Of a DNA stretch of 32,000 nucleotides, positions 1 through 29,172 are shown piece by piece. The first letter of the stretch is position 1. Each line of letters starts with the position of its first letter. The stretch covers positions 309,486 to 341,485 of the forward strand of contig NC_017094.1 in the NCBI RefSeq assembly GCF_000284315.1. Reading direction: 5' to 3'. The notes under the pieces were generated by a model. It worked only from the letters and a program-made list of their open reading frames with translations. It searched no databases and had not been told where the DNA came from. A program made the position numbers and the translations under genes. The DNA comes from Leptospirillum ferrooxidans C2-3. GTDB lineage: Bacteria > Nitrospirota > Leptospirillia > Leptospirillales > Leptospirillaceae.

Positions 1-951
1 TCCTGGAATGATGCGTCGCTCTTCAACTGAACCATCTTTTTTCAGTACATAAATAAACAGAAGGCCGTTTCTGGTCATGATGGCCGTATCGGGGATGGTC
101 AGCCTGTTCTTGAGTGTATGGAGCAACAGGGAGACCCGTATGAACATTCCGGGTTTGAGCCGCTCGTTCCGGTTGTCGAAGATCGCCTCGACAGGCATCG
201 TCTTGCTGTCTGGATTCAGTGCGTGGCTGACCAGGGCGATTTTGCCCGAAATGGGATGATCAGGGTCTTGTTTGACGATGATGAGGGCAGGGGTGCCGAT
301 CGTCACATCATCGACCGATGCTTGCGGAATATCAATTCTGACTCTCACTCTGGAGATGTCTTCAAGACGGAAAAGAGGGGTGTTGCTCCCTTTCTGTCCG
401 ACAAGGGCCCCCGGATCGACATACCTTCTGGTGATGATTCCTGAAAACGGAGCCCGTATGACGGAAAACTGGAGTTGTGTGACATCTTCCCTGAGATTGG
501 CCAGGGCTGAGAGATAAAGATTCTGGGCCTGATCGACCTCTTCTCTCGAGATCAGGTCGGGAGATTCCTTGAGGGTTTGCCTGAAGCGGTTCAAAAGGGT
601 CAGTCGGTACTGATAATTGGCCAGTGCTCGCATGAAGTGTGTTCTCAGTTCGGGAATGTCGATCTGGGCAAGAATGTCATTTTTCCGGACACTTGACCCG
701 ATGTCGACCGAGACGGTTTTCAGGTATCCCAGAACCTGCGGATGGATTTCGGTCGACTGGTAGGATGTGACCGTTCCCGGGAGCCTGATGGAAACGGGAA
801 GATCCGTGATGGTGGGATGAGTCACAAGGACTGTTGCCCTTGATCCCTCTATCGTGACCAGCTTGTCCTTTCGGGGAGTCTGGTGGCAGGAAACCAGAAA
901 TGGCATGAGAAAAAGCACAAGAAGGATCGATCGTAACGGAGTGTTGATCAT
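1..951 (-). CDS. Periplasmic adaptor (membrane-fusion/HlyD-like) lipoprotein domain, partial, runs off the left edge; in frame with the upstream permease
   Basis: Minus-strand frame from 951: MINTPLRSILLVLFLMPFLVSCHQTPRKDKLVTIEGS..., a lipobox-like LVSC, then adaptor-like barrel text (VSIRLPGTVTSYQSTEIHPQVLGYLKTVSVDIGSSVRKNDILAQIDIPEL). No TTA/CTA/TCA triplet in this frame from 1 to 951. Confidence 0.82.
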   Translation of the reverse strand, partial: MINTPLRSILLVLFLMPFLVSCHQTPRKDKLVTIEGSRATVLVTHPTITDLPVSIRLPGTVTSYQSTEIHPQVLGYLKTVSVDIGSSVRKNDILAQIDIPELRTHFMRALANYQYRLTLLNRFRQTLKESPDLISREEVDQAQNLYLSALANLREDVTQLQFSVIRAPFSGIITRRYVDPGALVGQKGSNTPLFRLEDISRVRVRIDIPQASVDDVTIGTPALIIVKQDPDHPISGKIALVSHALNPDSKTMPVEAIFDNRNERLKPGMFIRVSLLLHTLKNRLTIPDTAIMTRNGLLFIYVLKKDGSVEERRIIPG

Positions 952-3900
952 GTTTTGGCCTTTATGGGTGGTGATGAATTGTTCTGTTTTCTTTAAAAAG
1001 AGAAAAGAGAGGACAGGAATCAAAAAGAGCGTCAGGGGAGTGGCGACAAGAAGTCCTCCGATAACGGACCTTGCCAGGGGAAGGGTGTTCTCGGATCCGA
1101 CGCCAAAGCGGATGGCGACGGGGATCATGGCTGTAATGGCCGACAGGCTTGTGATCAGGATCGGCCGGATCCTTTCCCTGGACCCCCTCAGGATGGACTC
1201 CCTGAGGGGGATTCCCTCGTTGACGTACCGAAGGTAGCGGTTGACGAGAAGGATGCTGTTCGACGCGACAATACCGATCGTCATGAAGATCCCCATGATC
1301 GAAACAAGATTCAGGGAGGAATGGAGGATGCCAAGAAGGGCCATGCTGCCAATGATACCGAGAGGGACAACGCCGAGAACAATCAGGGGAGCGATGAAAG
1401 AACGGTAAAAGACAAGGAGAAGAAGGAAAAGGAAAAAGACTGCCAGCAGTATGCCTTTCGAAAGATTGGAAAAGGCATGCCTTATATGGGTCGTCATACC
1501 CACAAAACGGATGTGGATTCCGGGGGGTGTGGATGTGTTCTTTAACAGCTGGTTGATCCTGTCGGAAATCTGGATGGACTCTCCCGGGGAAGGCGCAACC
1601 AGAACATCTATGGCCCGGTCCAGACGATCGTGATCGATCTCTTCGGGGATATCCTGATGGGTAACCCGTGCGAGCTCTCCGAGATAGGTGATGCTTCCTT
1701 TCTGGGTGTGGGCTACGGGAAGATTGGTCAGGTCTTCCATTCTCGTAAACTTTTCCGGCGGGTACATGACGGAAAGGTAGTAGAAGAATCCGGTTACGGG
1801 GTCGATCCAGGGAATGGGCCGGATCGCGTTATTGGAGTTCAGGCTGACCTGAACATTCTTCGCAACCTCGTCTTCTTCTGTTCCGAGGATCTTTCCAAGC
1901 GTCCGGTCGACCTCGATCTTCAGGGCCGGGTAATGGGGGCGTTGAAAGACATTGGAGGACAGGACTCCGGGAAGACCCCTTACTTTTTCCGCCAAACGTT
2001 TGGCATAAAGCATGCTGTTTTGGTAATGGTCTCCATGAATTTCGATGATCACAGGAGTGATTCTGCCCCGGGAAAGAAGATCCTGGACGATTCCGCTGGC
2101 CTTGAAGAGGAAAATGGTGTTTTCAAAGTGCTTTCGCAGAATGGGCTCAAGATGTCTGATCGCCTGGGCAGTCGAATAGTGGCGATGATTTTTGGAGACC
2201 AGCGCGACATCGATAATGGCCGTATCCGTTCCGGCATTGGGGTTGAAAATCGATGACCACCCTGCCTTGATGCCGATATTGGAGACGATCGCCGTGACGG
2301 TGTTCCCGGGAAGGGATTTCCGTATCAGATGATCGATGGCGATCGATTCCTTCCGGGATACGGAAAGGCGTGACCCGCCCGGAAAATGGACAAAGATCCT
2401 GAACTGGCCGGCGTCGACCTCGGGATAAAGGCTCTGCGGAACCGAGCGCCCAAGAGGGAGGATCAGAAGAAGGATCATGGTAATGAAAAGAAGGGTTCTC
2501 GCCGGATGCAAGAGCAGGTGGTCAAGAAAGACCCTATAACGGTCAAAGACTTTTTCGAGGTAGAGTGGAAGAGGGGGGACGATCTTGTCTTTTTTGGGCT
2601 TCCCGTACCGGTGTGCCAGGATGACAAGCCAGGGAATCAGGAGCAGTGAGAGGATTACGCTGACGAGATTCGCGCCGATGACCGAGATTCCGAGTGGCCA
2701 GAACAGGAAATGGACGAGTCCTCCCAGAAAAAGAAGCGGAAAGAACACAACGATCATGGCAAGTGTGGCCATCACTGTCGGTCGCAGAATGGGGACAAGT
2801 CCGGCCATGATGGCCGACGGTGCGGATCCTTCCTCGGGTTCGTGGGACTTGAGACTTTCGACGACCAGGACAAGATGGTCGATCATTGGTCCCACGGCAA
2901 TGGCAAGTCCCCCCAATGTCATGATGTTGAGCGTTTCTCCGGAGAAGTGGAGAAAGGTCAGGTCGGCCAGGTAGGCGATCGGGAGAGCGATGACCCCAAG
3001 AAGGGCCTGCCTGAACTCTCCCAGAACCAGAAAAATCAGTATTCCCGATGTCAGTATTCCTAGGAACGCCTCTCTCATGAGGGAGGAAAGGGCCTCTTTG
3101 GTATAGATGGTCTGATCGAACAAAATTCTGGTCTTGACCTCCGCCGGAACCTTGTCGAGATGTGGCAGCGCCTGTTTGATCCGGGAGATCACATCGAGGG
3201 CGCTGTATCCGCTTTCCCGATAGATCGGAAGGATGACTGACGGAACGCCGTCGACCAATACCATGTTTTCCTGGGGAGCGAAGGAGTCTTCGATTGATGA
3301 GACGTCCCTCACAAAAACGGGAACTCCATGAGAAAGCCTGATGGGAATTTCTCCCAGGGCAGAAAGATCAGGTGCCTGATTGTTGAACTGGGTCAGGTAG
3401 TTGAGCTCTCCTATGCGGATATTTCCGGTGGGGATAAGAAGATTCTGGCGATAGATCGCATTGACAACATCAAGGGGGGTCAGTTTTCGGTTGATGAGCC
3501 GTTCCGGATGAAGGTACATATTGATCTGCCGGACCTTTCCTCCGAAAATGGGGGGAGATGATACCCCTTCTATACCGCCCAGCTGGGGACGGACGACATT
3601 GGTTGCCAGGTCATACAGTCGCGCCTGGCTGATGGAGTCCGATGTCAGGAGAATATGGCAGAGAGGGACATTAGAATAGCTGTAGGATACGACCATGGGC
3701 GAAGCCGTTCCGGGGGGCAGAAACGGCAGTATGGAGAGGGAAAGTTCATTGATTTCGGAAACAGCCTGCCCGATGGGAACCTGGCTGTGAAAAATGATTT
3801 TGACGAGACTGATGCCGTTCAGGGAGCGGGAGTGGATGGACTCCACATCTCCCGCCATGGTGAACTGCCTCTCGAGGATAGACGTAATATTCCGTTCGAT

Positions 3901-4137
3901 GAGGGAGGAGTTCATCCCCGGGTAAAATGTCGCCACCATCACCACCGGGATGGGGATCGAGGGGAAGATATCCCGGGGAATCTGCCGGATGGACAGAAAG
4001 CCGAAGACGATCACTCCCATGAGCATGGCAATCAGGGGGTAGGGATTTTCAAGATTGCCCTGGGTCATGCGGTGGAGCAGACCTTGGGTATTCAATTGTC
4101 CTGACGGTCTGTTGTCCTGCGCCTTATGATCTGACAT
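952..4137 (-). CDS. RND-family efflux permease (N-terminal about 1062 codons of an ORF that stays open to the window edge)
   Basis: ATG at 4137 (minus). My translation gives MSDHKAQDNRPSGQLNTQGLLHRMTQGNLENPYPLIAMLMGVIVFGFLSIRQIPRDIFPSI... with RND features: NIMTLGGLAIAVGPMIDHLVLVVES in the TM4 region, a second half with SIMGIFMTIGIVASNSILLVNRY, and a C-terminus TPLTLFLIPVLSFLFLKK. It is missing from the supplied ORF track, which fits a frame with no stop inside the window. Confidence 0.9.
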
Positions 4138-4396
4138 CTTTGCTCCGGGTGATCGGATTTCCATTAGTTGTTTGAGAACACGATCAGGCATCCAGAGGTT
4201 TTTCCGGGAAAGGCACCGTGTCGGAGGGCATCTGGAGGGGCCGAAAAAGAGATCGATCAAATCCCTTTTCCGGCTCCTCCAGAGCGTGATGGGGGATGGT
4301 AGTGCATATTCTGAATGGAAATCCTTTCCTGTGCAAGAGGATGTTCAGGAGAATCAGGATTGATGGACAGGCGAGGATCTTTTAGGAGGAGGAGTT

Positions 4397-6636: not shown

Positions 6637-7785
6637 TCAGATGTTTCCAAACAGGTCTATGTACTCTCCATAACGAAACTGTCGATTGCGTACGTTTCCT
6701 GTGATTTCTCTAAGAAGATTATGTGTGACAAAACGTTTCATTAAATTGTTGGCTGCAGTGAAGCTTGCTCCTGTTACCGTTACGATATCCTGAACATCGA
6801 TAATGGGATGCGAATAGAGGTATTCCAGTACCTTATTTCCATTAGCGGTTGAGCCTCCAAAACACTCAATGATCATTTCTCGGTGTTTTTCCCGTAACGC
6901 GACAATTTGTCGGGCAGTCTCGGTGGCCTCATGGGAGACTTCTCCAACGGCGACAAGAAAAAACTTTAACCAGCTTTCCCAATCCCCTTCATCCCGAATT
7001 TTCTGAAGGAGATCGTAATATTGTTCCCGGTGTTTTTTAAAGTAATGAGAAAGGTAAAGGACTGGGCGTTGGAGAATGCCGCGTTCGCAAAAAAGAAGTG
7101 TGATCAGCAATCTTCCTATACGTCCATTGCCGTCAAGAAACGGGTGGATGGTTTCGAATTGGGCATGTGCCAATCCAATTTTTATCAGATCTGGAAGTTG
7201 CTCTTCACTATGAAGAAATTGCTCAAGATTCGAAAGCGCATCCGGTACGATTTCGGGAGGGGGAGGAACAAAGGTTGCTTCGTGGAGGGTGCAACCGCCA
7301 GGACCAATCCAGTTTTGACTACGCCGTAGCTCTCCTGGCTGACGATCTGCCCCTCGCACATTGACGAGCAATTTTTGATGGATCACTTTTATGAGCCGGA
7401 CAGAAACGGGCAGTTCCTTTAAACGTGAAAGTCCAAGGTTCATGGCTCCGATATAATTGATGACTTCATCGACATCTTTCGGACGCCGGGAGCTGAACAC
7501 CTGTGCTTCCGCTTCAAGAACATCATCAAGAGAGCTCTGAGTTCCTTCTATTTGACTTGATAAGACCGCTTCTTTGCGTATGTACATGAACACAAAAAGG
7601 TCTGGATCAGGGAGTGTCTGGATGGACCCATCAAGCCGTCCGATCGCACGGTCTGCGAAAGAACCAGCGGTCAGGATTTCATGATCCATCACAATACCTG
7701 GATCTGGCGGAAGAAATTTTGGAATAAAGGCTTTATAGCCTTTTAGTTGATGGATATATTGGCCAGCACGACCTATTTTTTTCAT
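6637..7785 (-). CDS. Fic-family protein, N-terminal-inhibited (class II-like), with a C-terminal winged-helix-like region
   Basis: 382 aa; Fic motif HPFLDGNGRIGR, upstream SSQIEGT matching the (S/T)xxxE(G/N) inhibitory motif, C-terminal HPIIDVQDIVTVTGASFTAANNLMKRFVTHNLLREITGNVRNRQFRY. Confidence 0.9.
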   Translation of the reverse strand: MKKIGRAGQYIHQLKGYKAFIPKFLPPDPGIVMDHEILTAGSFADRAIGRLDGSIQTLPDPDLFVFMYIRKEAVLSSQIEGTQSSLDDVLEAEAQVFSSRRPKDVDEVINYIGAMNLGLSRLKELPVSVRLIKVIHQKLLVNVRGADRQPGELRRSQNWIGPGGCTLHEATFVPPPPEIVPDALSNLEQFLHSEEQLPDLIKIGLAHAQFETIHPFLDGNGRIGRLLITLLFCERGILQRPVLYLSHYFKKHREQYYDLLQKIRDEGDWESWLKFFLVAVGEVSHEATETARQIVALREKHREMIIECFGGSTANGNKVLEYLYSHPIIDVQDIVTVTGASFTAANNLMKRFVTHNLLREITGNVRNRQFRYGEYIDLFGNI

Positions 7786-12630: not shown

Positions 12631-15534
12631 CTAGAAGGTAACGGTGACACCTCCGAAAACGTTGATCGGTTCACCCGGGTAGACAAACAGTGTATCGACA
12701 TTGTTATTGCCTGTCAGAAATGCCGGGTTATAGTAATTTGTGTTCAAGAGATTGAATGCGTTGAAAAACAACTGGGCGCTCTTGTACCAGCTTGTTGTGG
12801 GAAGATCGTAGGCCAGAATAAGGTTGGTCACGAAATATCCCGGAGAATTGGCTTGGCAATTACAGTTGCCACTAACGCCGCCACCGGTATCGATGACATT
12901 CATGTTACCGGTATAGCGTTCATTGATCGTGGCATGCCATGGTCCTGCTGCATAGTTCAGATCAAGATTGGCCAATTGATTGGGGACAAAGGGAAGTCTG
13001 TCTCCGGTATTGCTGTAAGATCCGAATGACGCACTTAAAAATGTTGCGTTTGTAACGGTGTAGTTTCCGTCGACAGAAAATCCGTCTCCGATGACATATT
13101 TGAATTCTGCTTCAATTCCTTCCATCTGGGCGGTATTGGCCTGAACGGGAACAACATTCGGAACATTGTTGACGGTGACCAGGGATGTCAGAAGCATGTT
13201 CGAGATATAGTCAGAGTATCCGTCGATGGCGATGAAACCCTTTGTTCCTGTATAACGGGCACCCATCTGGTAATCATTGATAATTTCCGGTTGCACATTC
13301 AATTGCTGCTGTCCCGGTGCGAGTCCCGACCAGAACTGAATGGCTGGGGTGGAATAGGACTGTCCCGCACTTGCATAAAGTTTCAATTCTTTAATGGGGT
13401 AGTAGTCAATTCCCACATGCGGAAGAAAAACGTCGAAGTTTTGACCAGCGGTGATTCCTCCTTCTCCGTGTCCCTGGCTTGTGATGTAGGCCAGATTGGC
13501 TCCAGTCAAGTGTTCGGAATACTGCTCTCCGACCTCCATGGCCCGGAAACCTGCACTCACCAGCACCTGATGGGTCGGTCGCCAGTGGTCCTCAAGATAA
13601 CCTCCGATGGTCAAGAGCTCATTGGAAGCATCCTGGGCATTTCCGGTGATATTGGGCGAAAGCAACGGATTGTTTGCATAGAGATAATTGGAATCAGAAA
13701 GCCTGAACCCGACATGAAGGGTATTTTGCCCAATAATGGGGGTCAGACTGTTCCAGAGCTTGATGGTGCTTTCGACGATGTCTCCGACTTTGAACCCCTG
13801 ACCCTCGATATAGCTGAAGTTGAAGGGGTTCTGTGAGGTCGATCCACCGCTTGACTGCTGCCCTCCATAAGTAGGCGTCAGATTCTGGAAGCTCCCTCCT
13901 CCGGGAATCTGGTTTGTTCCGGTGGAAGTGACCGGAACGTTGATGACTCCGTAAGGAGTGATCAAGGCGAAGGCATTATTTTTGATTGTGACAGAATCAT
14001 TGATCTTGTTTTCTGACTGCAGGGTGAACATGTAGCGTTCTGAAATCCAGTCCTTGTAGTAAGGTGAATTGGGTGTGTTGACCCCATTGGCATATCCGGT
14101 GTTCTCCCCATTGGGCAGCCCGTTGTAGGTGGCGCCGAATGAATTGAAATCCTGGACGGTCATGGAGGAGCCACGATCATAGTTTTTGTAGGCTCCGGTA
14201 AACATGAGCTTGACGTATCCATTCGAGAGATACTTGCTGATGTTTCCGTAATCCTGGATTTCCTGATAGTTCGTATATTCCTGAAAGCCGTTCATGTTCA
14301 GAAAGGAGAGGTCATTATATCCCGCAGCATTGACTTTTGTGTTTAAACCGGTATTTGTGATCAGGGAGGTATAATAGAGTCCGTAATTTCCCATTCCGGA
14401 AGTGATCTGGGTATAGGCATCCTTGGTGGGCTGTACCAGATGAATATTGATGGCGCAACCGGAGGCATAGTTCCCAAGCTGTTGCGATGTGGTGACACCC
14501 CTCTGGATGTCGACAGAGGAAATGTCATTGTTCATGAGGTTCAGGTCATAGACCATACCGCCGTCCTGGTTCACATTCTGGGGAACTCCCTCGACGGAAA
14601 ACTCGATATTGGAACCACCGGAAGGAGCAGAGTTGGAACCACCCGTAGTATAGCCCCGGCACATGAAGTAGTTCATTCCGCCAGTGATACCGTTGGCGCC
14701 TGAACGCGAATAGTAATTGACTGAAGGCGTCTGCATCAGGACATACCCGATACCGGTTGTCTGGTTTTCTGCAAATTTCTTTCTGCCGACAATGGTCATT
14801 GCGCCGGTATTATCCTGAATTTTCTTGTTTGCCTCTGCGTTGATGTCAGCTTCTGCCAGACGATTCAGACGAAGCGGAAAATTATGAGATGTGTTTCCAT
14901 TGATCGCTATTTTTTCCGAGAGGGGAAAATAGCCTTTTTTGGTGATCTGTACAAGGTAGTCTCCAGACGGGATATTGTTCAGTGAGAAATGTCCTGAGTT
15001 GTCGGATCCCACCGTGTAAATTTCATTGGTGCGGGTGTTTTTGACAGCCATTTGGGCAGAAAGGGGAATCTTGTTGTCCCCATGGCCCTCATAGATATTT
15101 CCGGATAAAAGAGAGTTTCCTGTCGAGAGGGGCAAGACCTGAAAGTTCATTTCTCCGACTGTATTCCCTTTCAGGATTCCTTCTTTTTTCTGAAGCGAAA
15201 AGCTTCCTCCACCGGCAATGATCTGATAGTTGCCAGGTGCCAGATGAGAGAAAATGAAAGCTCCCTGAGCATCGGTTTTTTTGGTGACGACTTCTCCTGT
15301 GCCGTTGTTTTTTAAGGCAACGGGAACACTTGAAAGCGGTTTCTTGTCTTTACTGGAAAAGATCGTTCCATAAATCACAGAGGAAGCTGCTACCGACGGG
15401 GCAGAGGCTTCCTTTCCCGATGCGGATGCATCAGGAGCCGACTGACCGTACGATAAAGGTCCGTTCCATTGACTGACAAGAAAAATCCCGGCCAAAGCCG
15501 CGATATTCTTGAGGGTCTTTTCTTTTCTGATCAC
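12631..15534 (-). CDS. TonB-dependent outer-membrane receptor with N-terminal carboxypeptidase-regulatory-like domains
   Basis: 967 aa, signal peptide, two tandem regulatory-like modules (KPLSSVPVALKNNGTGEVVTKKTDAQGAFIFSHLAPGNYQII; KIPLSAQMAVKNTRTNEIYTVGSDNSGHFSLNNIPSGDYLVQ), plug-like region, C-terminal TF ending (VFGGVTVTF). Confidence 0.9.
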   Translation of the reverse strand: MIRKEKTLKNIAALAGIFLVSQWNGPLSYGQSAPDASASGKEASAPSVAASSVIYGTIFSSKDKKPLSSVPVALKNNGTGEVVTKKTDAQGAFIFSHLAPGNYQIIAGGGSFSLQKKEGILKGNTVGEMNFQVLPLSTGNSLLSGNIYEGHGDNKIPLSAQMAVKNTRTNEIYTVGSDNSGHFSLNNIPSGDYLVQITKKGYFPLSEKIAINGNTSHNFPLRLNRLAEADINAEANKKIQDNTGAMTIVGRKKFAENQTTGIGYVLMQTPSVNYYSRSGANGITGGMNYFMCRGYTTGGSNSAPSGGSNIEFSVEGVPQNVNQDGGMVYDLNLMNNDISSVDIQRGVTTSQQLGNYASGCAINIHLVQPTKDAYTQITSGMGNYGLYYTSLITNTGLNTKVNAAGYNDLSFLNMNGFQEYTNYQEIQDYGNISKYLSNGYVKLMFTGAYKNYDRGSSMTVQDFNSFGATYNGLPNGENTGYANGVNTPNSPYYKDWISERYMFTLQSENKINDSVTIKNNAFALITPYGVINVPVTSTGTNQIPGGGSFQNLTPTYGGQQSSGGSTSQNPFNFSYIEGQGFKVGDIVESTIKLWNSLTPIIGQNTLHVGFRLSDSNYLYANNPLLSPNITGNAQDASNELLTIGGYLEDHWRPTHQVLVSAGFRAMEVGEQYSEHLTGANLAYITSQGHGEGGITAGQNFDVFLPHVGIDYYPIKELKLYASAGQSYSTPAIQFWSGLAPGQQQLNVQPEIINDYQMGARYTGTKGFIAIDGYSDYISNMLLTSLVTVNNVPNVVPVQANTAQMEGIEAEFKYVIGDGFSVDGNYTVTNATFLSASFGSYSNTGDRLPFVPNQLANLDLNYAAGPWHATINERYTGNMNVIDTGGGVSGNCNCQANSPGYFVTNLILAYDLPTTSWYKSAQLFFNAFNLLNTNYYNPAFLTGNNNVDTLFVYPGEPINVFGGVTVTF

Positions 15535-16903: not shown

Positions 16904-19148
16904 TTAAAAGGTGACTTTGACTCCGGCAAAAAGATTGACCGGTTCTCCAGGGTAGACGAAGAGCGTTGCCAGGTTGTTGGCGGTAGCGGCATTTCCTGAG
17001 CCGTAATAGCCGGCCGGGTTGTAGTAGTTGGTATTAAGAAGATTGTATGCCGACAAATAGAGGTTCGCGGCCTTGTACCATCCGTCGACCTTCGGCAGGT
17101 CATAGGAAGCATAGAGATCGGTCACGAAATACCCAGGAACATTGTCCTGAGGATTCCCGGGCGTTCCCGACATGTCGACGACATTCATCATCCCGGTGTA
17201 CCGCTCGTCAACTGTGATGTGGTACGGACCATGGTCGTAGGAAAGTGCGAGATTTCCCATGTCCAGAGGAATGAACGGAATCATGTCCCCGGCGAAGTTC
17301 TGGCCGCTGGCGGGAGTATTTCCCAGAACATTATTCATGTAGGTGAAGTTTGCGGAACCTGTAAAACCCAAACCCAGATCGATTTTGCCTTCTGCCTCGA
17401 TTCCCTGCTGACGGGCTTGGGCGATATTTTCAAACTGGGTGAAGGTCGTTGTCCCGGAAGTGAAGGGTACTGCGACCGGCATATTGGTCAGATAATCGCT
17501 GTAAACATCCAGAGCGACGAATCCTTTTTGAGTCGAATACCGTGTTCCAACACTCAGATCCCAAACATTTTCGGGTTGAACTCCCCCCACCAATGAACCG
17601 GAGGAGAATCCCTTGTAGTCGAACATCGCGGGAGGCGCGAAGGACTCACCACCCGTGACATAAAGCTTCCAATGCTCGTTGGGGTAGTAGTTCAGTCCGA
17701 CATGGGGCATGGGGATCAACATCGATCCTCCGTTGCTGACACCCTGGCCTGCTGCCGAAAAGTCTGAGCTGGGGACCTGGTCATTATAGTACTGGGCGAT
17801 ACTCGCAACCCGGAATCCGACATTGATCAGGACCTGATCCACTGGTCGGTAATGGTCCTCGAGGTATCCCACAATACTTGTCTGGGAGTAGATCGCATCG
17901 TTTGTTCCACCAACAATATTGCCACCCAACAAAGGATCGATGTAGTAATGGTAGGTTGCGTACTGACCTTTCATTCCCAGATAGAGATTGTCGTCTTTCC
18001 AGAGCCGGTACTTGACCTCGGCAATATCTCCCGCCTTGTATCCCTCTGCCTGATAATAGTTCTGGAGGAACTGGTACCCAAGCTGGCCGCTCATGTTTGG
18101 AGCGATGGAACCTGAGGTAGACGAAGTACAGGAGGTCCCGTTGCAGCTCCCGAATCCCGCCGGCATGCTTGTACTTCCGTAAGGCTCCACATTTGCATAT
18201 AGAGAGTTTTTCACCCGGATCGACGGGGTGATCTGGTCCTTGACGCCCAGATCCAGCATGAACCGCCCGTATTCCCAATTTTTGAAAAACGGCGAATTGG
18301 GCGTATCTCCCGGGTTGGTCGGGTTACTATAGCTCGGACCGCCATTGTTGGTCGGGCCGTAGGTATTGTAATTCGCGAGACTCATCGATGCGCCGCGGTC
18401 ATAGGATTTGTAATTCGCTGTGGTGATGAAGTAAAGCTTCCCTCCCGTCAGATACTTTGTAAGATTCCCGTAATACTGGTATTCGGTAAGAGGAGTGAAC
18501 TGCTGGAAGCCATCCTGGTGAATGATGGTGAAGTCGTTGTAGCCACCGATGTTTGTGATCGAATTGATCCCTGAGTTGTTGATGTAGCTTGTGTAATAGA
18601 GCCCGTAGGAACCGCCTCCGGCGTTGACAGTCTGAAAGGCATCCTGCATGGGATCAACCAGATGGAAGTTCACGGAACATCCCGCCGCGTAGTTTCCGGT
18701 TTCCCGGGATGTTGTCACACCCCTGTTGACGGTTGCGGACTTGATGTCGGTGTTCATGATCCCGAGATCATAGACTTCCCCGCCATCGGCTTCAATGTTC
18801 ATCGGAACGCCTTCAACCGACATTTCAATTCCGGCATTTCCGTTCGGATTGGTGTTGGCGCCGCCCACTGTATAGCCACGGCAGGACATGTAGTTCATTC
18901 CCCCTGAGATACCCTGAGCTCCGGAACGGGAATAGTACTCGATACCCGGCGTGTTCTGCATGAGGGTATAGCCCGCACCGGTTGTCAGATTCTGCTGAAA
19001 TTTCTTCTGGTCAACAATGGAAATGGCACCGGTATTGTCCTGGATTCTCTTGTTTCCCTCCGCACGGATTTCGGCTCGCGCCATGCGATTGAATTGAAGT
19101 GAGATATTTTCTCTTGTCTTCCCGCTGACATCGACCGTTTCGGAGACT
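16904..19148 (-). pseudogene. C-terminal fragment of a second TonB-dependent receptor, disrupted by an IS21-family insertion
   Basis: Paralogous to the receptor at 12631..15534 (NKRIQDNTGAISIVDQKKFQQNLTTGAGYTLMQ vs NKKIQDNTGAMTIVGRKKFAENQTTGIGYVLMQ; C-termini VNLFAGVKVTF vs INVFGGVTVTF). No signal peptide; the track ORF start at 19165 is a TTG inside the IS. Confidence 0.92.
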
Positions 19149-19153
19149 GGAAC
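19149..19153. repeat. Target-site duplication, left copy (GGAAC)
   Basis: GGAAC abuts the IS terminus TGTAGATTG; an identical GGAAC follows the other terminus at 21611-21615. Confidence 0.9.
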
Positions 19154-19215
19154 TGTAGATTGCAACTACTTTTGACCCCTTTTTGAAAAATAAAATTGAC
19201 CCCCCTTCCTCCCGG

Positions 19216-20028
19216 TTAAAGTGAGGCTTTGATTTCTCCTTCCCCTTGCGAGATAAGCGAAGATGGGGATGGTTTTGCGCTCTTTCGCCGATGGATTTTG
19301 TCCCGGACACGATAGCTCGATCCCTGGATAGGGAAAATCCGGGCATGATGAACCAGCCGGTCAATAATGGCCGCCGCCACGACAGAGTCGGGAAAGATCT
19401 TTCCCCAGTCTTCGAACCCGTAGTTGCTGGTCAGAAGGATCGATCCTTTCTCGTAACGGATGGAGACCAGCTGAAAGAGCAGGTTGGCCTCTTCCCGGGT
19501 AATCGGGGTGTATCCGACCTCGTCGATGATCAGGACATGGTACCGGGAATATGCCAGGAGGCTCGCCGGCAGGGTGCCGTTCCGGACCGACAGAGACAGA
19601 TCCCGCAAGAGAGCGGGGAGGGTGAGGAACAGAACGCGCTTTTTGGCTTGGCAGGCCTTGATGCCGATCGCCACGGCCAGATGTGTTTTCCCGACGCCAG
19701 GCGGTCCAAGGAAAACAAGATTCTCGGCCTTCTCCAGAAAGTCGAGCGTTCCCAAGCGGACCAAGGTTTTTTCCTCCAGGGAGGGCTGGAAAGAAAAGTC
19801 GAACTCCTCCAGGGTGCGGAGGAAAGGGAACCGGGCCAGAGTTATTTTGGTGCGGACCGACCGGTCGGTCTTTCCCCGGGTTTCTTCATCCAGAAGAAGA
19901 GCCAGGTATTCCTCGTACTGGAGCTGGTTCTTGGCCGCTTCTTCGGCCAGAGGGCGGTAAAGGTCGATCAGTCCCTTTAAACTCAGGGTCCGGAGTTGCT
20001 GAGTGATCCGCTGGTGGAGGTCAGTCAT
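19216..20028 (-). CDS. istB: IS21-family helper ATPase
   Basis: Start taken as ATG at 20028 (MTDLHQRITQQLRTLSLKGLIDLY...), P-loop GPPGVGKTHLAVAIG, VLIIDEVGYTPI, LLTSNYGFEDWGKIF. Overlaps the istA end. Confidence 0.95.
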   Translation of the reverse strand: MTDLHQRITQQLRTLSLKGLIDLYRPLAEEAAKNQLQYEEYLALLLDEETRGKTDRSVRTKITLARFPFLRTLEEFDFSFQPSLEEKTLVRLGTLDFLEKAENLVFLGPPGVGKTHLAVAIGIKACQAKKRVLFLTLPALLRDLSLSVRNGTLPASLLAYSRYHVLIIDEVGYTPITREEANLLFQLVSIRYEKGSILLTSNYGFEDWGKIFPDSVVAAAIIDRLVHHARIFPIQGSSYRVRDKIHRRKSAKPSPSSLISQGEGEIKASL

Positions 20029-21493
20029 GGCACACCTCCTCTCCGAGTCCCCCATAGCAGTCGAGAGAACGCGTAAGAGAGGCTCCCATCGGCAGAGCCA
20101 TGCCTTCCGGCACCGGAAGAAGACACTCCGGCCGGAGGAGCGGACGGAGAAAGTTTTTATGGAACCCCTGACATGCCTGGGCCTCCCGAAGGACCCGCCG
20201 TCCCTCTTCGGGGTCGTACCGCTCCAGAAGTTCCACGATCTCGGAGACATGCCACGTGAAGTTCGGTCCGGTCGCTTCCTGAAGCCCCTCCAGAAAGGGC
20301 TCGACCTCTTCCCCGAACCGTTCCCGGAACCGGCCCACCCATCGGGCCCGGAGCCCTTCCCGGCGCTTCTTCCGTCGGGGTTCGGCCTCCTGATGCTCCG
20401 GGTGCGGTGGAAGGGGGTCCGGGGAACCGGTTCGAAGAGGATGGGTGAGGAGCGGGGTCTCCCCCTCTCCCCATACCGTCAGCCGGATTCCTGACTCCAC
20501 GGTCACCCAGACACTCCGTCCACAGAAACGCATGGGAACGGGATAGGCGTGTCCATCCCACCGAATATATCCGTCGGAACTGACTTTCCGGATTTCGCCT
20601 TCGTAGAGGCGCCGGGGATCGACCGGGACCAAGGGCCGAAGAAGGGACTTCTCATGTTCAAAGCGGTCCACCGGCTTTTCGTGAAGGGTCTGGTGACGGC
20701 GCTGGTTGAAGGTCCGGGTGAAGGTCTGGAGCAGATTCTCCAGGCTGCCCCAGTCCGACACCTTCTTGCCCCGGAGCCCCCGTTCCTTGAGCGAGAAGAA
20801 GGTCCGCTCGACTTTTCCCTTCGTACGGGCGCGATAGGGCTGGCAGGCTTCCGGATCGATCCCGTACAGGCCGCAAAACATCAGGAAGGACTCGTTGAAG
20901 CGGACGCCTTTCTCCTTCCGGTTCTCCACCACCATCTGGCTCCCGTTGTCCATCAGAAGCGTTCGGCAGGTTCCTCCGAAAAAGGCAAAGGCCCGTTCCA
21001 GCGCTTTCATCACATCCTCCTGGCGGATCGTGGCGGAACAGGAAAAATGGGTCAGCCGGCTGTAGCCCAGAACCACGGCATGGATATAAACCGTCTGGAC
21101 TGTTCCCCCCCAATCAATCTCCCACTCGGTCCAGTCGTACTGCATCTGCTCTCCCGGCCCCGTTTCCATCCGAACGGTGCTTCGGGCTTTCTCCCGCTCT
21201 TCAGATCGAATCCGGGACAAATGGTTGTACAAGGTCTTCAGGGATCCCCGATATCCTTCCGCCACCAGCTCCTCATAGATCCGGGTCCCGATGTACCGCT
21301 TCCGAACCATCTCGACGATCCGACCTTCATACGGCGCAATCTTCCGGGCGTACTCTCGTTTGTGAAAAACCGGAGGCTCCGCAGATCGGAGATACTTTTT
21401 CACGGTATTCCTTGAAAGCTTCAATGTCCGGGCAATCGCTTTAATCCCTTGCTTGTTTTCCCGCATCATCCGAATCTTCTGCCACAGATACAT
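20021..21493 (-). CDS. istA: IS21-family transposase
   Basis: Start taken as ATG at 21493 (MYLWQKIRMMRENKQGIKAIARTLKLSRNTVKKYLRS); the track ORF opens at 21580. DDE-type text MQYDWTEWEIDW, TLLMDNGSQMVV, YRARTKGKVERTFFSLKERG. Confidence 0.93.
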   Translation of the reverse strand: MYLWQKIRMMRENKQGIKAIARTLKLSRNTVKKYLRSAEPPVFHKREYARKIAPYEGRIVEMVRKRYIGTRIYEELVAEGYRGSLKTLYNHLSRIRSEEREKARSTVRMETGPGEQMQYDWTEWEIDWGGTVQTVYIHAVVLGYSRLTHFSCSATIRQEDVMKALERAFAFFGGTCRTLLMDNGSQMVVENRKEKGVRFNESFLMFCGLYGIDPEACQPYRARTKGKVERTFFSLKERGLRGKKVSDWGSLENLLQTFTRTFNQRRHQTLHEKPVDRFEHEKSLLRPLVPVDPRRLYEGEIRKVSSDGYIRWDGHAYPVPMRFCGRSVWVTVESGIRLTVWGEGETPLLTHPLRTGSPDPLPPHPEHQEAEPRRKKRREGLRARWVGRFRERFGEEVEPFLEGLQEATGPNFTWHVSEIVELLERYDPEEGRRVLREAQACQGFHKNFLRPLLRPECLLPVPEGMALPMGASLTRSLDCYGGLGEEVCHD

Positions 21494-21610
21494 GCTGACC
21501 ACCCCTTCCCTCCTCTCAAGATATTCCTGAGAGGACTTTAACAATTTTCTTTTCGAAGGGGGGTCAGTTTTATCTTTCAATAAAGGGTCAAATCTATTTT
21601 ACGATTTACA

Positions 21611-24917: not shown

Positions 24918-26006
24918 TTACCGTTTAGTCCCAATCATGGCCCTGAGTCTCAACAGTCCTGCTGTCACAATCTGATCGTTCGGGAGGAAAGGGCCTTCCA
25001 GTAGGATCTCTTTCCCGTTCTGCGCCATTTTGGAAACATTCAGACGAAGAAAGCCTGTTCCCCTTTTGACAAGGACCTGAAGTCCTCCCGCCTGATTCTG
25101 AAAGAGGGCCTCCTTGGGAACGATATATCCCTCCTGTGGCAGGTCGGGGACGATCTGCACAGAGACCCATAGGTCCGGACGGAAGCGGTGCTTTGGATTG
25201 GAAAGAGAGATTCTGATGGGAATGGTCCGCGTTTGAGGATCAGCCATGGGGAAAACTCTCGTGATCACCGCAGGAATTGTTTCAAATGGAGGGTGCAGTG
25301 TCCGGATGGATACCGGAAGACCAACCCTTATTCCTCTTTCCTGTCCCGGGTAAAGGTAGGCATCGACCCACAGGTGTGACAGGTCCGATATTTCGAAAAG
25401 CCAATCTCCCTGATGAACCTGATTCCCTTCAATCTCTCCGGTCTTGATGATGGTTCCGGCAATGCTTGACCGCACTTCATAGCGATCAGACGGCTTGTGT
25501 GTCTTGATCAGACGATCAATTTCCTTTTGTGAGGCTCCAAGAGTCTTGAGTTTTGAAAGCGCCAGGGAGAGAAGGTCCCGACTGCCCGAAGCATTGATCC
25601 TGTGACTTTCCAGGACGCTGACCGCTTCCGCTTCGGCGGTCTGGAACTGGCGGCTCCGAAGGACAGCCAAAAGTTCTCCCCTTGAAACGGTATCTCCGGG
25701 AAAGGCCTTGATGGAGATGGTTGAAAGGGCACTGACTCTCGACATGACCCTGCGGTAATGAACGGGATCAAATGTAATCCTTCCCGGGATAATGACTTCC
25801 TGGGAGAGGCGTCCCTTTTGGATCGGAATGGTTTTGACAAAATCCATCGTGTTCAGCTGTTGCTCCTGAGAACCGGCGTCCTTAGGGTGCTCTTTGGGAT
25901 GTTTGGTACAGCCGGGAAGAACGAACAGGATTGTGGCACACAAAAGGAGCCCGGAAAACAATCCTGACGGGTTTCGAGGTGTTTTGTGCGTCTCAGATCT
26001 GGACAT
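24918..26006 (-). CDS. RND efflux periplasmic adaptor lipoprotein
   Basis: Start taken at 26006 (MSRSETHKTPRNPSGLFSGLLLCATILFVLPGCTKHPKEH; lipobox LPGC). Barrel/hairpin text: VIIPGRITFDPVHYRRVMSRVSALSTISIKAFPGDTVSRGELLAVLRS. Confidence 0.85.
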   Translation of the reverse strand: MSRSETHKTPRNPSGLFSGLLLCATILFVLPGCTKHPKEHPKDAGSQEQQLNTMDFVKTIPIQKGRLSQEVIIPGRITFDPVHYRRVMSRVSALSTISIKAFPGDTVSRGELLAVLRSRQFQTAEAEAVSVLESHRINASGSRDLLSLALSKLKTLGASQKEIDRLIKTHKPSDRYEVRSSIAGTIIKTGEIEGNQVHQGDWLFEISDLSHLWVDAYLYPGQERGIRVGLPVSIRTLHPPFETIPAVITRVFPMADPQTRTIPIRISLSNPKHRFRPDLWVSVQIVPDLPQEGYIVPKEALFQNQAGGLQVLVKRGTGFLRLNVSKMAQNGKEILLEGPFLPNDQIVTAGLLRLRAMIGTKR

Positions 26007-28962
26007 CAGGCAATCCTTCTTGGGGAGATACGGTTCTGGTAAAAAGGGAAAGAGCCGAAGGGATGAGGAAAACGGAAGAAAAAAAGGAGCCGACAAGTCC
26101 GCCAAGGACTGCCACAGCCAGGGGCCGCTCCATATCGAGACCTGCGCCTCCGCCGAGAGCCAGTGGCAGAAGAGCCGCTGCGTTGGCGAGATGCGTCATG
26201 ACGATGGGAAGAAAACGGTCAGAAAGCGCTTCCTTCAGCTTTTCTGAGGCGTTGCCTTCTGCAGATTCAAAGCGATTCGCCACCAAAAATCCGTTTTCTG
26301 CGGACAATCCCACCACGAGAATCAATCCGACAAAAGAAGAAATGTTGAGGGTCCTGCCGGAGAAGGTCAGGGCGGCGATCCCAGAGAGGACCGAAAAGGC
26401 CATTCCCGCGGTCAAGACAAGCGGTGGCGTCCATTTTCTGAATGTCCCGTAAAGAATGGTCACGATCAGAAGAACCGAGCCCAGAAGGGCTTCTCCCAAA
26501 GTCCGGAAGCTTTTCTGTTCCTGCTTGTATGCCCCGGAATAGGTGACCCAAGAGGATTTTGGCAGGGTGAGGGAAGAGACTTTTGCCTTGATCTCCTTGA
26601 TCACACCTCCGAGATTTCCATGATCCAGACGACCTTCGATCCGGAGGATGGGGGAGAGATTTTTATCCTCTTCCTCGGTGGCAGGGGGTGTATTGGTGAA
26701 GGTCACCACCTGAGAGAGAGGAATCAGGGAACCATCAGACTCCGAAATCGGAAGATGGGAGAGGGGGATCAAGCCATTTCTGTATTCGGAAGGGTAGAGG
26801 ACCCTGACCGGCAGGGGGCCTCCGGGAGAAAGGACCGTTGTTGCGGTGATTCCCATAAGGTCTTCCCTGGTTTGTGCGATGATCGCCTCCGGCGTGAGTC
26901 CCGCCAGGGAGGCGAGGGGAGCGATCACGTGGCCATCGAGTGTATCCCCCATGGGTCGAACCGACAGATGGAGATCAACAAGCCCGGGGATTCCGGAGAG
27001 TCTGTCCCGGATCATTCTGGCCGTCCCCAGAAGATCTTTCCGGTTTTGACCATGAACCTCAACCACAACAGGCGCCGAAACACCGATCAGATCTCCCAGA
27101 CTGTCTTCCATGACCTGAGAATAGTCCGTATCGAGTTCCGGCTCATTTTTTTGGACCCATGGCCTGAGTTCCCGGATTAACTCAAAAGTGGATTTGGGGT
27201 GGTTTTCCGAAAGCCTGATGACAAAATCTCCCTTGTTGGGTTCGGTAATGTAAAATCCCATTTCCGTTCCAAGCCTTCTTGTCGTATCGATAACGCCGGG
27301 AAGTGCCCGTATGTGATCTTCCACCCTGAGGACAGCCCTGTCCATGTCGTTGATGGAACTTCCCACCGGGGCATGGAAATCCAGGGTAAAGGATCCTTCG
27401 TCCATTCTGGCCATGAAATTGGTTTTAAGATGGGTCAGTGGCAGCAGAAGAAGAGCGAAAGCAAGAGTTCCGGCTCCAAGGATAACCGCCGGAGAGAGTC
27501 CTGTCAGAATCCCTGTCGATATGGGCACTGGCGTTTCCTTCTCCTGATGAATGAATGCGGGCGTGACAAAGGTGTTGACCAGGAGTGAGACACCCAAAAG
27601 TGTCACGAAGGAAATTGCCAGGGGGGCGAAAAAAGCACCCACAAGGCCATTCATTCCAAAAAGGGGAACGAGTGCGAGAATTGTGATCAGACCGGAAAGT
27701 ACGAAGGGGACAAGAAGTCCGCTCATTCTGTGTGCGTGTCTTCCTCCTTCAATGATGACAATAAAGTCGTCGATCACAAGTCCAACTCCGGCAGCGATGC
27801 CTCCCAGAACCATGAGATTCAAGGTTTCCCCGAGAAGTCCCAGAATGCCTGCAGAGATAAACAGGATTGCAGGGAGAAGTGATCCCATCAAAAGAATGGG
27901 ATAGCCTCTCCGGAGGATCAGTATGACAAGGGCCATCGCTCCGGAAAGTCCAATGGCGAGAGCCCAGATGACATGCCGGATCGCATCGGAAACGAGAGCC
28001 CCCTGGTCATAGACGATGGCTGGCGTGCATCCCTTCGGAAGAAGCCGCCTGAACTCGTTCATATGATCGAGAAGGGCTCTCTGAATGGTCAGCGCATTGC
28101 CTCCATGAGCGCGATAGACGAGAAGAAGAACGGCCGGAGAACCATTGGCACTGATCCTGATGGTTTCATCCGAGGGCCTTACTCCCCGCCGGACGGTTGC
28201 CAGAAGGTCGATGGGAAGGGGAACGCCTGATGGAGAGGGTAAAAAAATCTTGTTGATCTCGGCTGTTCGGGTCATTGTGTTATCGATCTGAACGGTTTTC
28301 AGCCGGTGTTCCTCAGTTCTCGGTCCGATGACGCCAATCCTGTTTTGTGTGGAAAGGGCACTGATAACATCGGAGAAAGTCCGGTGTGCTCCTGACAGTT
28401 TGTAGGGGTCGACCTCAACATGGATCTCCGGATTCTTTCCTCCGGCAATTTCCGTCTTCCAGACTCCCGGGAGGTTCGAGATGTAGGGAATCAGCCGGGT
28501 TTTGGCAATTCTTGTGATCTGGGGCAAGTTGTCGGACGTGGATGAAAGCGCCACGGTGAGAACAGGGGTATCGGACGGATACATTCGAATGGCCTGGATG
28601 CTGGTTCCGGCAGGGAGATCCCCCCGGATCCGATCAATCGCCTGGGCGACCCTTGGTAACGCCAGTGACATTTGTTCATGCCAGGAAAAACGGAGGAAAA
28701 ACTCGGCCGATCCCTGCATCGTCCGGGAGTTGAGCTCCCGAACCCCCTGAACACCCCTGAGGGTAATTCCCACGGGTCTTGTGATGCGGCTTTCCATTTC
28801 GGCAAATGGAATGTCGGGTGATCTCACGATCACGGAGACTCTGGGAAAATCAATGGAAGGGTACAGGGTCATGGGGAGATTCCATGCCTTGACGATCCCC
28901 AGAATGGAGAGCACGACCGTCAGCAGGAGAGAGAATCCCCTGTATTTTTTGATGAGTGTCAT
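25993..28962 (-). CDS. RND efflux permease
   Basis: Start probably ATG 28962 (MTLIKKYRGFSLLLTVVLSILGI); the track ORF opens at 29046. GETLNLMVLGGIAAGVGLVIDDFIVIIEG in TM4; SFVGLILVVGLSAENGFLVANRF. Overlaps the adaptor start by 14 nt. Confidence 0.93.
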   Translation of the reverse strand: MTLIKKYRGFSLLLTVVLSILGIVKAWNLPMTLYPSIDFPRVSVIVRSPDIPFAEMESRITRPVGITLRGVQGVRELNSRTMQGSAEFFLRFSWHEQMSLALPRVAQAIDRIRGDLPAGTSIQAIRMYPSDTPVLTVALSSTSDNLPQITRIAKTRLIPYISNLPGVWKTEIAGGKNPEIHVEVDPYKLSGAHRTFSDVISALSTQNRIGVIGPRTEEHRLKTVQIDNTMTRTAEINKIFLPSPSGVPLPIDLLATVRRGVRPSDETIRISANGSPAVLLLVYRAHGGNALTIQRALLDHMNEFRRLLPKGCTPAIVYDQGALVSDAIRHVIWALAIGLSGAMALVILILRRGYPILLMGSLLPAILFISAGILGLLGETLNLMVLGGIAAGVGLVIDDFIVIIEGGRHAHRMSGLLVPFVLSGLITILALVPLFGMNGLVGAFFAPLAISFVTLLGVSLLVNTFVTPAFIHQEKETPVPISTGILTGLSPAVILGAGTLAFALLLLPLTHLKTNFMARMDEGSFTLDFHAPVGSSINDMDRAVLRVEDHIRALPGVIDTTRRLGTEMGFYITEPNKGDFVIRLSENHPKSTFELIRELRPWVQKNEPELDTDYSQVMEDSLGDLIGVSAPVVVEVHGQNRKDLLGTARMIRDRLSGIPGLVDLHLSVRPMGDTLDGHVIAPLASLAGLTPEAIIAQTREDLMGITATTVLSPGGPLPVRVLYPSEYRNGLIPLSHLPISESDGSLIPLSQVVTFTNTPPATEEEDKNLSPILRIEGRLDHGNLGGVIKEIKAKVSSLTLPKSSWVTYSGAYKQEQKSFRTLGEALLGSVLLIVTILYGTFRKWTPPLVLTAGMAFSVLSGIAALTFSGRTLNISSFVGLILVVGLSAENGFLVANRFESAEGNASEKLKEALSDRFLPIVMTHLANAAALLPLALGGGAGLDMERPLAVAVLGGLVGSFFSSVFLIPSALSLFTRTVSPQEGLPDVQI

Positions 28963-29172
28963 GGCAGGTTTTTGGTTGGAAGATTGGGACAATGGTACTC
29001 CTGGACAAGATTGATCTGGGAAAATTCCCTGTTTTCCATTGGCCACTCATCTTGATGGGTGGCTTTTCTGAGACTATCAGATTCTTTCAGTCAATACCTC
29101 CCCTCGCAGCCAGACCGGACAATTCTTGCCAAGCCAACAAGGTGATATTTTGCATCGCTTGGGAGAGATTGA

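Follow-up and report, generated by a model that had tools for sequence, protein, structure and literature searches.

A conserved natural fusion of an RND efflux permease with its periplasmic adaptor in the Leptospirillum ferrooxidans clade, with a lipoprotein signal peptide retained at the junction

In Gram-negative bacteria, intrinsic efflux of drugs and metals is carried out chiefly by RND pumps. In a 32,000-nucleotide stretch of the genome of Leptospirillum ferrooxidans C2-3 (contig NC_017094.1, positions 309,486 to 341,485; hereafter, the window), the permease and the periplasmic adaptor of such a pump are encoded by one uninterrupted open reading frame (ORF). The fusion is real, derived, conserved and under selection; its kind is known from engineered constructs, and its natural form is new in the literature that we searched. 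Comparative sequence evidence indicates that it is genuine, in-frame, vertically inherited and specific to the L. ferrooxidans clade. The overall best explanation, which we consider reasonably probable, is a conserved fusion whose adaptor part would be exported and probably cut off by signal peptidase II (LspA), with an internal start as an addition to this route.

The fused ORF lies on the minus strand and runs from an ATG at window position 4137 to base 1, i.e., 1379 codons that translate without a stop. A sequence-only reading of the window had placed this ATG and the adaptor’s own ATG at 951 in a single frame that stays open to base 1. We found this to be so: the two are 3186 nucleotides (nt), or 1062 codons, apart, and the junction translates exactly as it was first given (...TLFLIPVLSFLFLKKTEQFITTHKGQN-MINTPLRSILLVLFLMPFLVSCHQTPRK...). 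The same reading had proposed extending the sequence leftward to the stop. The window’s protein is identical across all 1379 residues to a public protein (WP_014448537.1/BAM06044.1; P0121) from the complete 2.56-Mb genome of L. ferrooxidans C2-3. This protein ends at 1422 amino acids (aa), and because the frame leaves the end of the window, the final 43 codons are located past base 1. The start at 4137 is favoured by the public annotation and by a Shine-Dalgarno (SD)-like GGAG at 4143-4146 (minus strand; duplex energy -5.8 kcal/mol). The frame is also open 5' of this start (window 4138-4347), to a TGA at 4345-4347, with extra in-frame ATGs at 4164 and 4191, and a 93%-identical relative has a different N-terminus that is 10 residues longer.

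It might seem that automated calling would miss such a gene. However, RefSeq, JGI and Logan each call a single coding sequence of 1422 or 1432 aa. The ORF is absent from the list supplied with the window because this list omits ORFs that run off the end of the source, which has no bearing on gene calling. The annotation problem that the fusion does flag is one of description: the single coding sequence is already in the databases but is misdescribed by name, as NCBI calls the protein an ‘efflux RND transporter permease subunit’ and JGI only an ‘MFP subunit’. Because each name covers one half, the adaptor (or the permease) is invisible to name-based surveys. No papers citing the accessions WP_014448537.1 or BAM06044.1 were found in the literature searched.

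Both halves have clear family assignments. The permease domain (aa 36-1046; window 1000-4032, minus strand) spans nearly the whole Pfam ACR_tran profile (PF00873, positions 13-1019 of 1021; E 4e-168). Because it scores 472 bits against NCBIfam RND_permease_2, where the subfamily cut-off is 1250, it is a divergent member. The closest solved structures are MdtB, AcrB and MexB, with which the permease aligns end-to-end. An AlphaFold2 model of the C-terminal permease half has pLDDT values above 90 for transmembrane (TM) segments 7-12 (TM7-12) and for the porter and docking domains. The end-to-end alignment and this confident half-model imply the permease fold, for which twelve TM segments, two large periplasmic loops and cytoplasmic termini would be expected.

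The TM4 motif GPMIDHLVLVVES (window 2920-2925) has an Asp-His pair in the fused permease and in its 25 closest homologues, which come from Leptospirillum and other Nitrospirota-like metagenome-assembled genomes (MAGs). On an alignment to AcrB made by eye, we take this position to be that of the Asp407-Asp408 pair of the AcrB proton relay. More distant homologues have DD, DN or DQ there. The residue that we likewise align by eye to AcrB K940 is Ser in 85 of 86 motif-matched homologues. These TM4 and TM10 relay residues, unlike those of AcrB, mark what appears to be a divergent subfamily and do not exclude membership in the RND family.

The adaptor, when read from Met 951, scores 164 bits against NCBIfam RND_mfp (TIGR01730), well over the cut-off of 94.9, and matches Pfam HlyD_D23 (aa 1115-1332, window 142-795; E 1e-25) and HlyD_3. 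Database records for the full-length protein add BSH_RND, Beta-barrel_RND_2, RND-MFP_C and YknX_C, and the closest solved structures are MexJ, MexA, ZneB and AcrA. Family matches on both sides of the junction, together with five fused junction variants, thus bear out the proposal of a permease and an adaptor in one frame. Just past base 1 is a gene for an OEP-family outer-membrane factor of 489 aa, whose overlap with the fused gene is 4 nt in loci L001 and L010-L012; the fused gene is part of a permease-adaptor-outer-membrane-factor operon.

One alternative is that the fusion is an artefact or a decaying pseudogene, in which a stop was lost or a frameshift arose through sequencing or assembly, or the locus is dying. 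Some colour is lent to it by an unrelated Bacteroidota clade, in which apparent RND-adaptor fusions are sporadic and the permease is frameshifted at the two loci inspected. However, the isolate genome is not alone in having this ORF: the same fused frame recurs among contigs and MAGs from NCBI, ENA, JGI and Logan. The exact same protein was found on at least 23 independent contigs and has index entries in 45 blocks of the sequence collection, drawn from ENA, NCBI and Logan assemblies. Compared with the window, locus L010 shows 6 differences across the 4137 nt of the gene and 17 across 10,137 nt in total, and carries the same neighbours, namely pantoate ligase, a chorismate-binding enzyme and a Fic protein. 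A 1432-aa fused form with 93% identity occurs in NCBI, JGI and Logan data (P0001, P0122, P0123 and P0128), and other fused variants at this level of identity are P0129 and the MAG contig L003. All 8 members of the cluster that extend across the junction are fused, as is L003, and they represent five distinct junction sequences. No stand-alone adaptor of more than 80% identity was found.

Among the fused lineages, the synonymous divergence (dS) is 0.63-1.16, and the permease has a ratio of non-synonymous to synonymous divergence (dN/dS) of 0.03-0.05, the adaptor one of 0.04. These ratios show strong purifying selection on both halves, as judged from coding-sequence comparison. Because both halves have been constrained through about one substitution per synonymous site, the fusion is not a pseudogene, and because the isolate genome, many independent assemblies and all five junction variants are fused, a sequencing or assembly error is excluded. 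This also disposes of the suggestion that an error near 951-1000 could have created the open frame. We therefore rejected the artefact and pseudogene explanation, which is now extremely improbable. An additional point is that a single mutation would be enough to turn any of 6 linker codons, out of 14, into a stop, and still the genes have not been re-separated in any fused lineage, although this alone is a weak test.

The proposed comparison with orthologues, i.e., whether related genomes have a stop between the two halves, proved informative: sister lineages keep two overlapping genes, whereas the fused clade has no stop between the halves. Outside the clade, the nearest relative is L002, a Leptospirillum MAG with 86% permease identity, in which two separate genes overlap at ATGA and AAGGAG serves as the SD. 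Two genes are also found at 63-67% identity in L. ferriphilum and Leptospirales MAGs, overlapping by 8 nt in L. ferriphilum and by 4 nt in a Leptospirales MAG. The order permease-adaptor-outer-membrane factor is common to the fused clade and these unfused relatives. On this phylogenetic distribution, the fusion is the derived state. Because the C-terminal tails of the permeases are unrelated in sequence across all relatives, the founding mutation is not reconstructible. However, a 9-mer (AAAGGCCAA) that the fused gene has in common with L002, and a TAA in the -1 frame, suggest that the founding event may have been either a deletion of about 32-35 nt or a 1-nt indel in a T/A run. This TAA (962-964, minus strand) is positioned 10 nt 5' of ATG 951 and is retained by each of the three fused variants compared at the DNA level (the window, L001 and L003); it could be a relic of the ancestral permease stop, bypassed by a 1-nt indel, or could be due to chance.

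Two other observations concern gene arrangements in the window. A second RND system is located at 24918-29046 (minus strand) in the same unusual permease-then-adaptor order but is unfused: its permease ORF (25993-29046, ACR_tran) and its adaptor, which starts at an ATG near 26005 (MSRSETHK..., lipobox LPGC), overlap by 17 nt, with an AAGGA SD 7 nt 5' of the adaptor ATG. A gene for a Fic-domain protein (382 aa; window 6637-7785, minus strand) lies between the aminotransferase and chorismate-binding genes in L. ferrooxidans loci and is absent from the syntenic region of L002.

In the fused protein, TM12 (...PLTLFLIPVLSFLFL) is followed by a short linker of 14 codons with a net positive charge (KKTEQFITTHKGQN; window 952-993, minus strand), which we infer to be a cytoplasmic loop and which is encoded by an A-rich, unstructured tract. 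After the linker comes MINTPLRS-ILLVLFLMPFLVS-C. This segment begins with the retained adaptor start codon (949-951, minus strand; Met 1063 of the fusion), which is kept in all five junction variants, and it constitutes a predicted lipoprotein signal peptide (MINTPLRSILLVLFLMPFLVSC; 886-951, minus strand) whose Cys codon is at 886-888. It is located inside the ORF, at residues 1063-1084 of 1422, and not at the N-terminus of a separate polypeptide; the remainder of the adaptor occupies 1-885 (minus strand). We used a conventional lipoprotein test, i.e., a positive n-region, an h-region of 7-22 residues and a lipobox [LVI][ASTVI][GAS]C. The segment has an Arg in its n-region, an h-region of 13 residues and the lipobox LVSC.

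The signal region diverges fast (dN about 0.2; 16 of 40 residues differ from P0001), but the Met, a basic residue, the hydrophobic character and an L-x-[SA]-C motif are retained across all variants, and a lipobox is present in every one (LVSC, LASC or LAAC). On a Hessa-type hydrophobicity scale, the best 19-mer of the signal sums to +2.7 to +5.4, compared with +0.4 for TM12 and +0.6 to +3.4 for unfused signal peptides. The h-region has not lengthened relative to the signal peptides of the unfused relatives. The hydrophobic segment therefore still looks like a cleavable signal more than a dedicated transmembrane anchor.

Within the signal peptide, no difference is seen between the window, L001 and L003 in the sequence CGATCGAT (window 925-932, minus strand; Arg-Ser-Ile codons), which includes the palindrome CGATCG. 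It is invariant although Arg and Ser are six-fold degenerate and the adjoining codons are variable. DNA-pattern scans of JGI metagenome contigs for extra linker variants returned 0 matches.

The tract preceding ATG 951 has several features of an initiation region. When the window type is compared with L001 and L003, synonymous variation is found at just 2 of the 11 informative codons in the linker, compared to 53% gene-wide, and only 0.5% of 14-codon windows are as low. The 40 nt 5' of ATG 951 are 50-55% A (50% in the window variant), and no other part of the 4.3-kb gene is richer in A (top 0.1-0.2%); unfused relatives have 23-28% A and ordinary structure there. A rare Gln codon (CAA) is used in this tract. 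From -30 to +30 around ATG 951, the ensemble free energy is -4.8 kcal/mol in the window and -3.3 to -5.1 across the variants; the median over 229 internal ATGs is -14.9, and that over 29 called starts is -13.5. This context is thus less structured than all but 0-1.3% of the internal ATGs and all but at most one of the called starts, and it falls within the least structured ~2% of windows in the gene.

The sequence-only reading had pointed to a weak AAAGG upstream of ATG 951; this SD-like motif lies 7 nt 5' of the ATG (959-963, minus strand). Its context, CATAAAGGC, is identical in the window, L001 and L003, and in all three variants its duplex with a generic anti-SD is -3.6 kcal/mol. By comparison, the adaptor start in the unfused L002 has an SD duplex of -9.0 kcal/mol. 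A strong internal ribosome-binding site is rejected, as -3.6 kcal/mol is ordinary for internal ATGs. Nothing above shuffled expectation was found in a search for a promoter or terminator near the junction. Because the synonymous sites are constrained and the A-rich, unstructured tract is conserved, ATG 951 probably works as an internal start that adds free adaptor, a prediction to which we give about an even chance. The sequence-only reading had set an internal start against the fusion as the competing explanation. The features of the initiation region are indeed conserved, but AAAGG is no better than chance as an SD, and as no stop intervenes, translation of the fusion occurs anyway. An internal start thus fits better beside the fusion, as an added route, than in its place.

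Given these results, we propose the following route. Because no variant has a stop between the halves, ribosomes that start at 4137 must make the 1422-aa permease-adaptor polypeptide. TM12 would end in the cytoplasm, and a 22-residue positive loop would lead to the retained lipoprotein signal peptide. This peptide would insert N-in/C-out as a thirteenth membrane pass and export the adaptor to the periplasm; such an orientation is expected because the C-terminus of RND permeases is cytoplasmic and the linker has a net positive charge. Lgt would then lipidate the Cys and LspA would cleave, such that one gene yields two mature proteins, 1:1 and side by side. The internal start at ATG 951 would supply additional free adaptor, which would help to reach two adaptors per permease. 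The sequence-only reading had described the adaptor’s hydrophobic signal as a possible extra TM segment that places the adaptor in the periplasm. This topology agrees with that of RND permeases and with the short positive linker, but a signal-like segment with a lipobox favours cleavage over a lasting protein of ~150 kDa. Because the hydrophobic segment has stayed short and the lipobox Cys has been kept, lipidation by Lgt and cleavage by LspA is the most likely fate of the polypeptide, although we put its chance at only about even; a permanent tether is a distinctly less likely fate. Either fate is compatible with function, because engineered fusions of an RND permease with a membrane fusion protein (MFP) assemble.

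It is important to consider several points that weigh against this explanation. Cleavage, tethering and internal initiation are all inferred, and no documented LspA cut at an internal lipobox behind a polytopic domain was found in the literature searched. AlphaFold2, applied to the C-terminal permease half with linker and adaptor (118-row alignment), gave pLDDT values of only 22-78 for the linker, signal and adaptor, and because this confidence is low, we draw no conclusion on docking or on a TM13. With regard to the internal start, 61% of 148 internal in-frame ATGs do at least as well as AAAGG, and 87% of 39 called starts have a stronger SD. The synonymous-constraint test covers three lineages and 11 codons. 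The A-richness and low structure could simply reflect the coding of a cytoplasmic linker rich in Lys, Thr, Glu and Gln, although, unlike these two features, the synonymous constraint is not accounted for by the coding of a hydrophilic linker. Finally, a 1:1 fusion alone does not yield the 3:6:3 stoichiometry that is established for known tripartite pumps (PMC4446572).

In view of this stoichiometry, it is conceivable that one ORF serves both of the non-equivalent adaptor positions of a 3:6:3 pump, with the copy released in cis by LspA in one position and a free copy from ATG 951 in the other. We consider this extension of the proposed route rather unlikely. If true, however, a cut by signal peptidase II behind a 12-TM domain would be without a recorded precedent, and loss of the ancestral strong SD and stop-start overlap would have locked the fusion in.

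The remaining alternatives differ from the proposed route in what becomes of the fused polypeptide. In one, the functional adaptor is an ordinary lipoprotein made from ATG 951, and the fusion is a tolerated by-product that is degraded or whose adaptor end is inert. The conserved ATG and lipobox and the A-rich, unstructured and synonymously constrained upstream tract are all consistent with this idea, as is the fact that known pumps need the adaptor at twice the number of the permease (PMC4446572). However, all ribosomes that finish the permease enter the adaptor, and fusion molecules are therefore expected to equal or exceed permease molecules in number. If such a product were wasteful or harmful, selection ought to have purged it, yet none of the 6 linker codons near a stop has become one in any fused lineage over a dS of about 1. 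With the SD also being weak, we regard this alternative as unlikely. The opposite possibility is that the signal remains uncleaved as a thirteenth TM helix, such that each permease has one adaptor covalently in cis and the internal start is unused. In other pump classes, an uncleaved helix at the N-terminus anchors some of the adaptors, and the positive linker fits the positive-inside rule. Moreover, engineered RND-MFP fusions do assemble (PMC4754349, PMC6447562). On the other hand, the hydrophobic core has only 13 residues, no more than in unfused relatives, the lipobox Cys is retained in five variants, and three adaptors per trimer is half the known number. A permanent tether with an unused internal start is, in our estimation, slightly more unlikely still.

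A programmed -1 frameshift would provide a different way out of the fusion, in that slippage at ‘A AAG’ after TM12 and termination at the TAA at 962-964 would release a free permease, with termination-reinitiation on the adaptor. In the window, a U UUA AAG heptamer with the X XXY YYZ pattern is present after TM12 (991-997, minus strand), in three DNA variants no stop interrupts the -1 frame between the slip site and the TAA (predicted -1 peptide …FLFKENRTIHHHP), ‘A AAG’ is conserved, and synonymous constraint would fit dual coding. However, in the codon alignment ‘A AAG’ is the only conserved part; the full heptamer is restricted to the window, with CTG AAA AAG in L001 and CTA AAG in L003. There is no upstream SD-like stimulator and no downstream stimulatory RNA structure at the junction (z -1.0), which is among the least structured stretches of the gene, and a TAA inside CATAAAGG could easily arise by chance. 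We therefore consider a frameshift very unlikely.

Some further features of the window are unrelated to the fusion. A probable insertion element at 20021-21580 (minus strand) is an ORF with integrase core (rve), Mu-transposase C-terminal and HTH_7 domains; it lies in the GC-richest kilobase (GC 0.62 at 20001-21000). Genes for TonB-dependent receptors are located at 12631-15534 and 16904-19165 (minus strand), the former with N-terminal carboxypeptidase-regulatory-like domains.

We also surveyed other permease-adaptor fusions with an exhaustive HMMER search that used the 550 junction-spanning residues. Other permease-then-adaptor proteins are at most 35% identical (P0136, P0247, P0271 and fragments) and most are singletons; where the two parts meet, all carry a Cys and a stretch that resembles a signal peptide. 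In a Bacteroidota group, a neighbor-joining tree intersperses fused with unfused forms. Fused loci on Bacteroidota-like metagenome contigs (L013/L014 and L015) have permeases split by frameshifts, into 530+876 aa and 725+718 aa, and L013/L014 is without a 93-nt spacer that is present in the unfused locus L016. The Bacteroidota fusions are sporadic and of doubtful function. A widespread, stable fusion family is thus not supported, given mostly singletons, scattered Bacteroidota forms and two loci with broken permeases. The Leptospirillum fusion is the best-supported natural case that we found, and it has no described precedent in the literature searched.

The survey also returned apparent fusions of a permease with an outer-membrane factor, four with ACR_tran and OEP by Pfam (P0143, P0148, P0192 and P0252) and two judged only from the junction sequence (P0191 and P0205). 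Each has a signal-peptide-like junction segment, with a lipobox VSC in P0205, and a gene-call or assembly artefact is possible. One 1300-aa protein (P0174, KAK3582503.1) is a reverse fusion, with HlyD_D23 at 21-219 followed by ACR_tran at 299-1282; although annotated in the assembly of the freshwater mussel Potamilus streckersoni, it is probably bacterial DNA in a eukaryote assembly.

The known role of RND pumps is unchanged by the fusion. However, the recruitment of six adaptors by one permease trimer is still argued from engineered fusions, and a natural, selected fusion offers an in vivo test of adaptor delivery in cis. It is also a natural substrate for asking whether Lgt and LspA process a lipobox behind a polytopic domain, and possibly a case of one gene with two products, through cleavage and/or an internal start, that sets subunit ratios.

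The fusion resembles several known systems in part. In comparison with pumps of the HAE1 type such as AcrAB-TolC and MexAB-OprM, the Leptospirillum permease and adaptor form one ORF, and the order is permease-adaptor-outer-membrane factor instead of adaptor-permease. OpuA and GlnPQ of Lactococcus are ABC importers with a substrate-binding domain fused to the permease. There, too, an extracytoplasmic lipoprotein partner is fused to a transporter, and the former signal sequence is the anchor; however, they belong to another transporter superfamily, and their tether is permanent. Another near parallel in mechanism is FbcH of Bradyrhizobium japonicum, a cytochrome b-c1 precursor that was reportedly shown by experiment (Thony-Meyer et al., PNAS 1991) to be split at an internal signal peptide by signal peptidase I. 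FbcH likewise has a polytopic protein upstream of a periplasmic partner, connected via an internal signal peptide, and one gene gives two proteins. The difference is that signal peptidase I makes the cut in FbcH, whereas the Leptospirillum protein is predicted to use a lipoprotein signal and Lgt/LspA.

Among RND pumps and their adaptors, no natural permease-adaptor fusion is described in the literature searched, which included comprehensive reviews of tripartite pumps and adaptors; these reviews mention fused dimeric adaptors, paired adaptors and engineered fusions, and the permease-adaptor fusions that further literature searches returned were all engineered. DSY0927 of Desulfitobacterium hafniense, a fused adaptor, and the paired TriA/TriB of TriABC are also natural departures from one adaptor gene per pump (PMC4446572). 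They bear on the 3:6:3 stoichiometry, but the partners that are joined or paired in them are both adaptors, with no permease among them. Close in design are the engineered AcrB-AcrA fusions, which are reported to have given assembled AcrAB-TolC and were used for cryo-electron microscopy (PMC4754349, PMC6447562). In these constructs, permease and adaptor are likewise covalently joined in one polypeptide, and assembly is still possible. However, such constructs are artificial, whereas the Leptospirillum fusion is natural and conserved, is joined by the adaptor’s own lipoprotein signal and may be recut.

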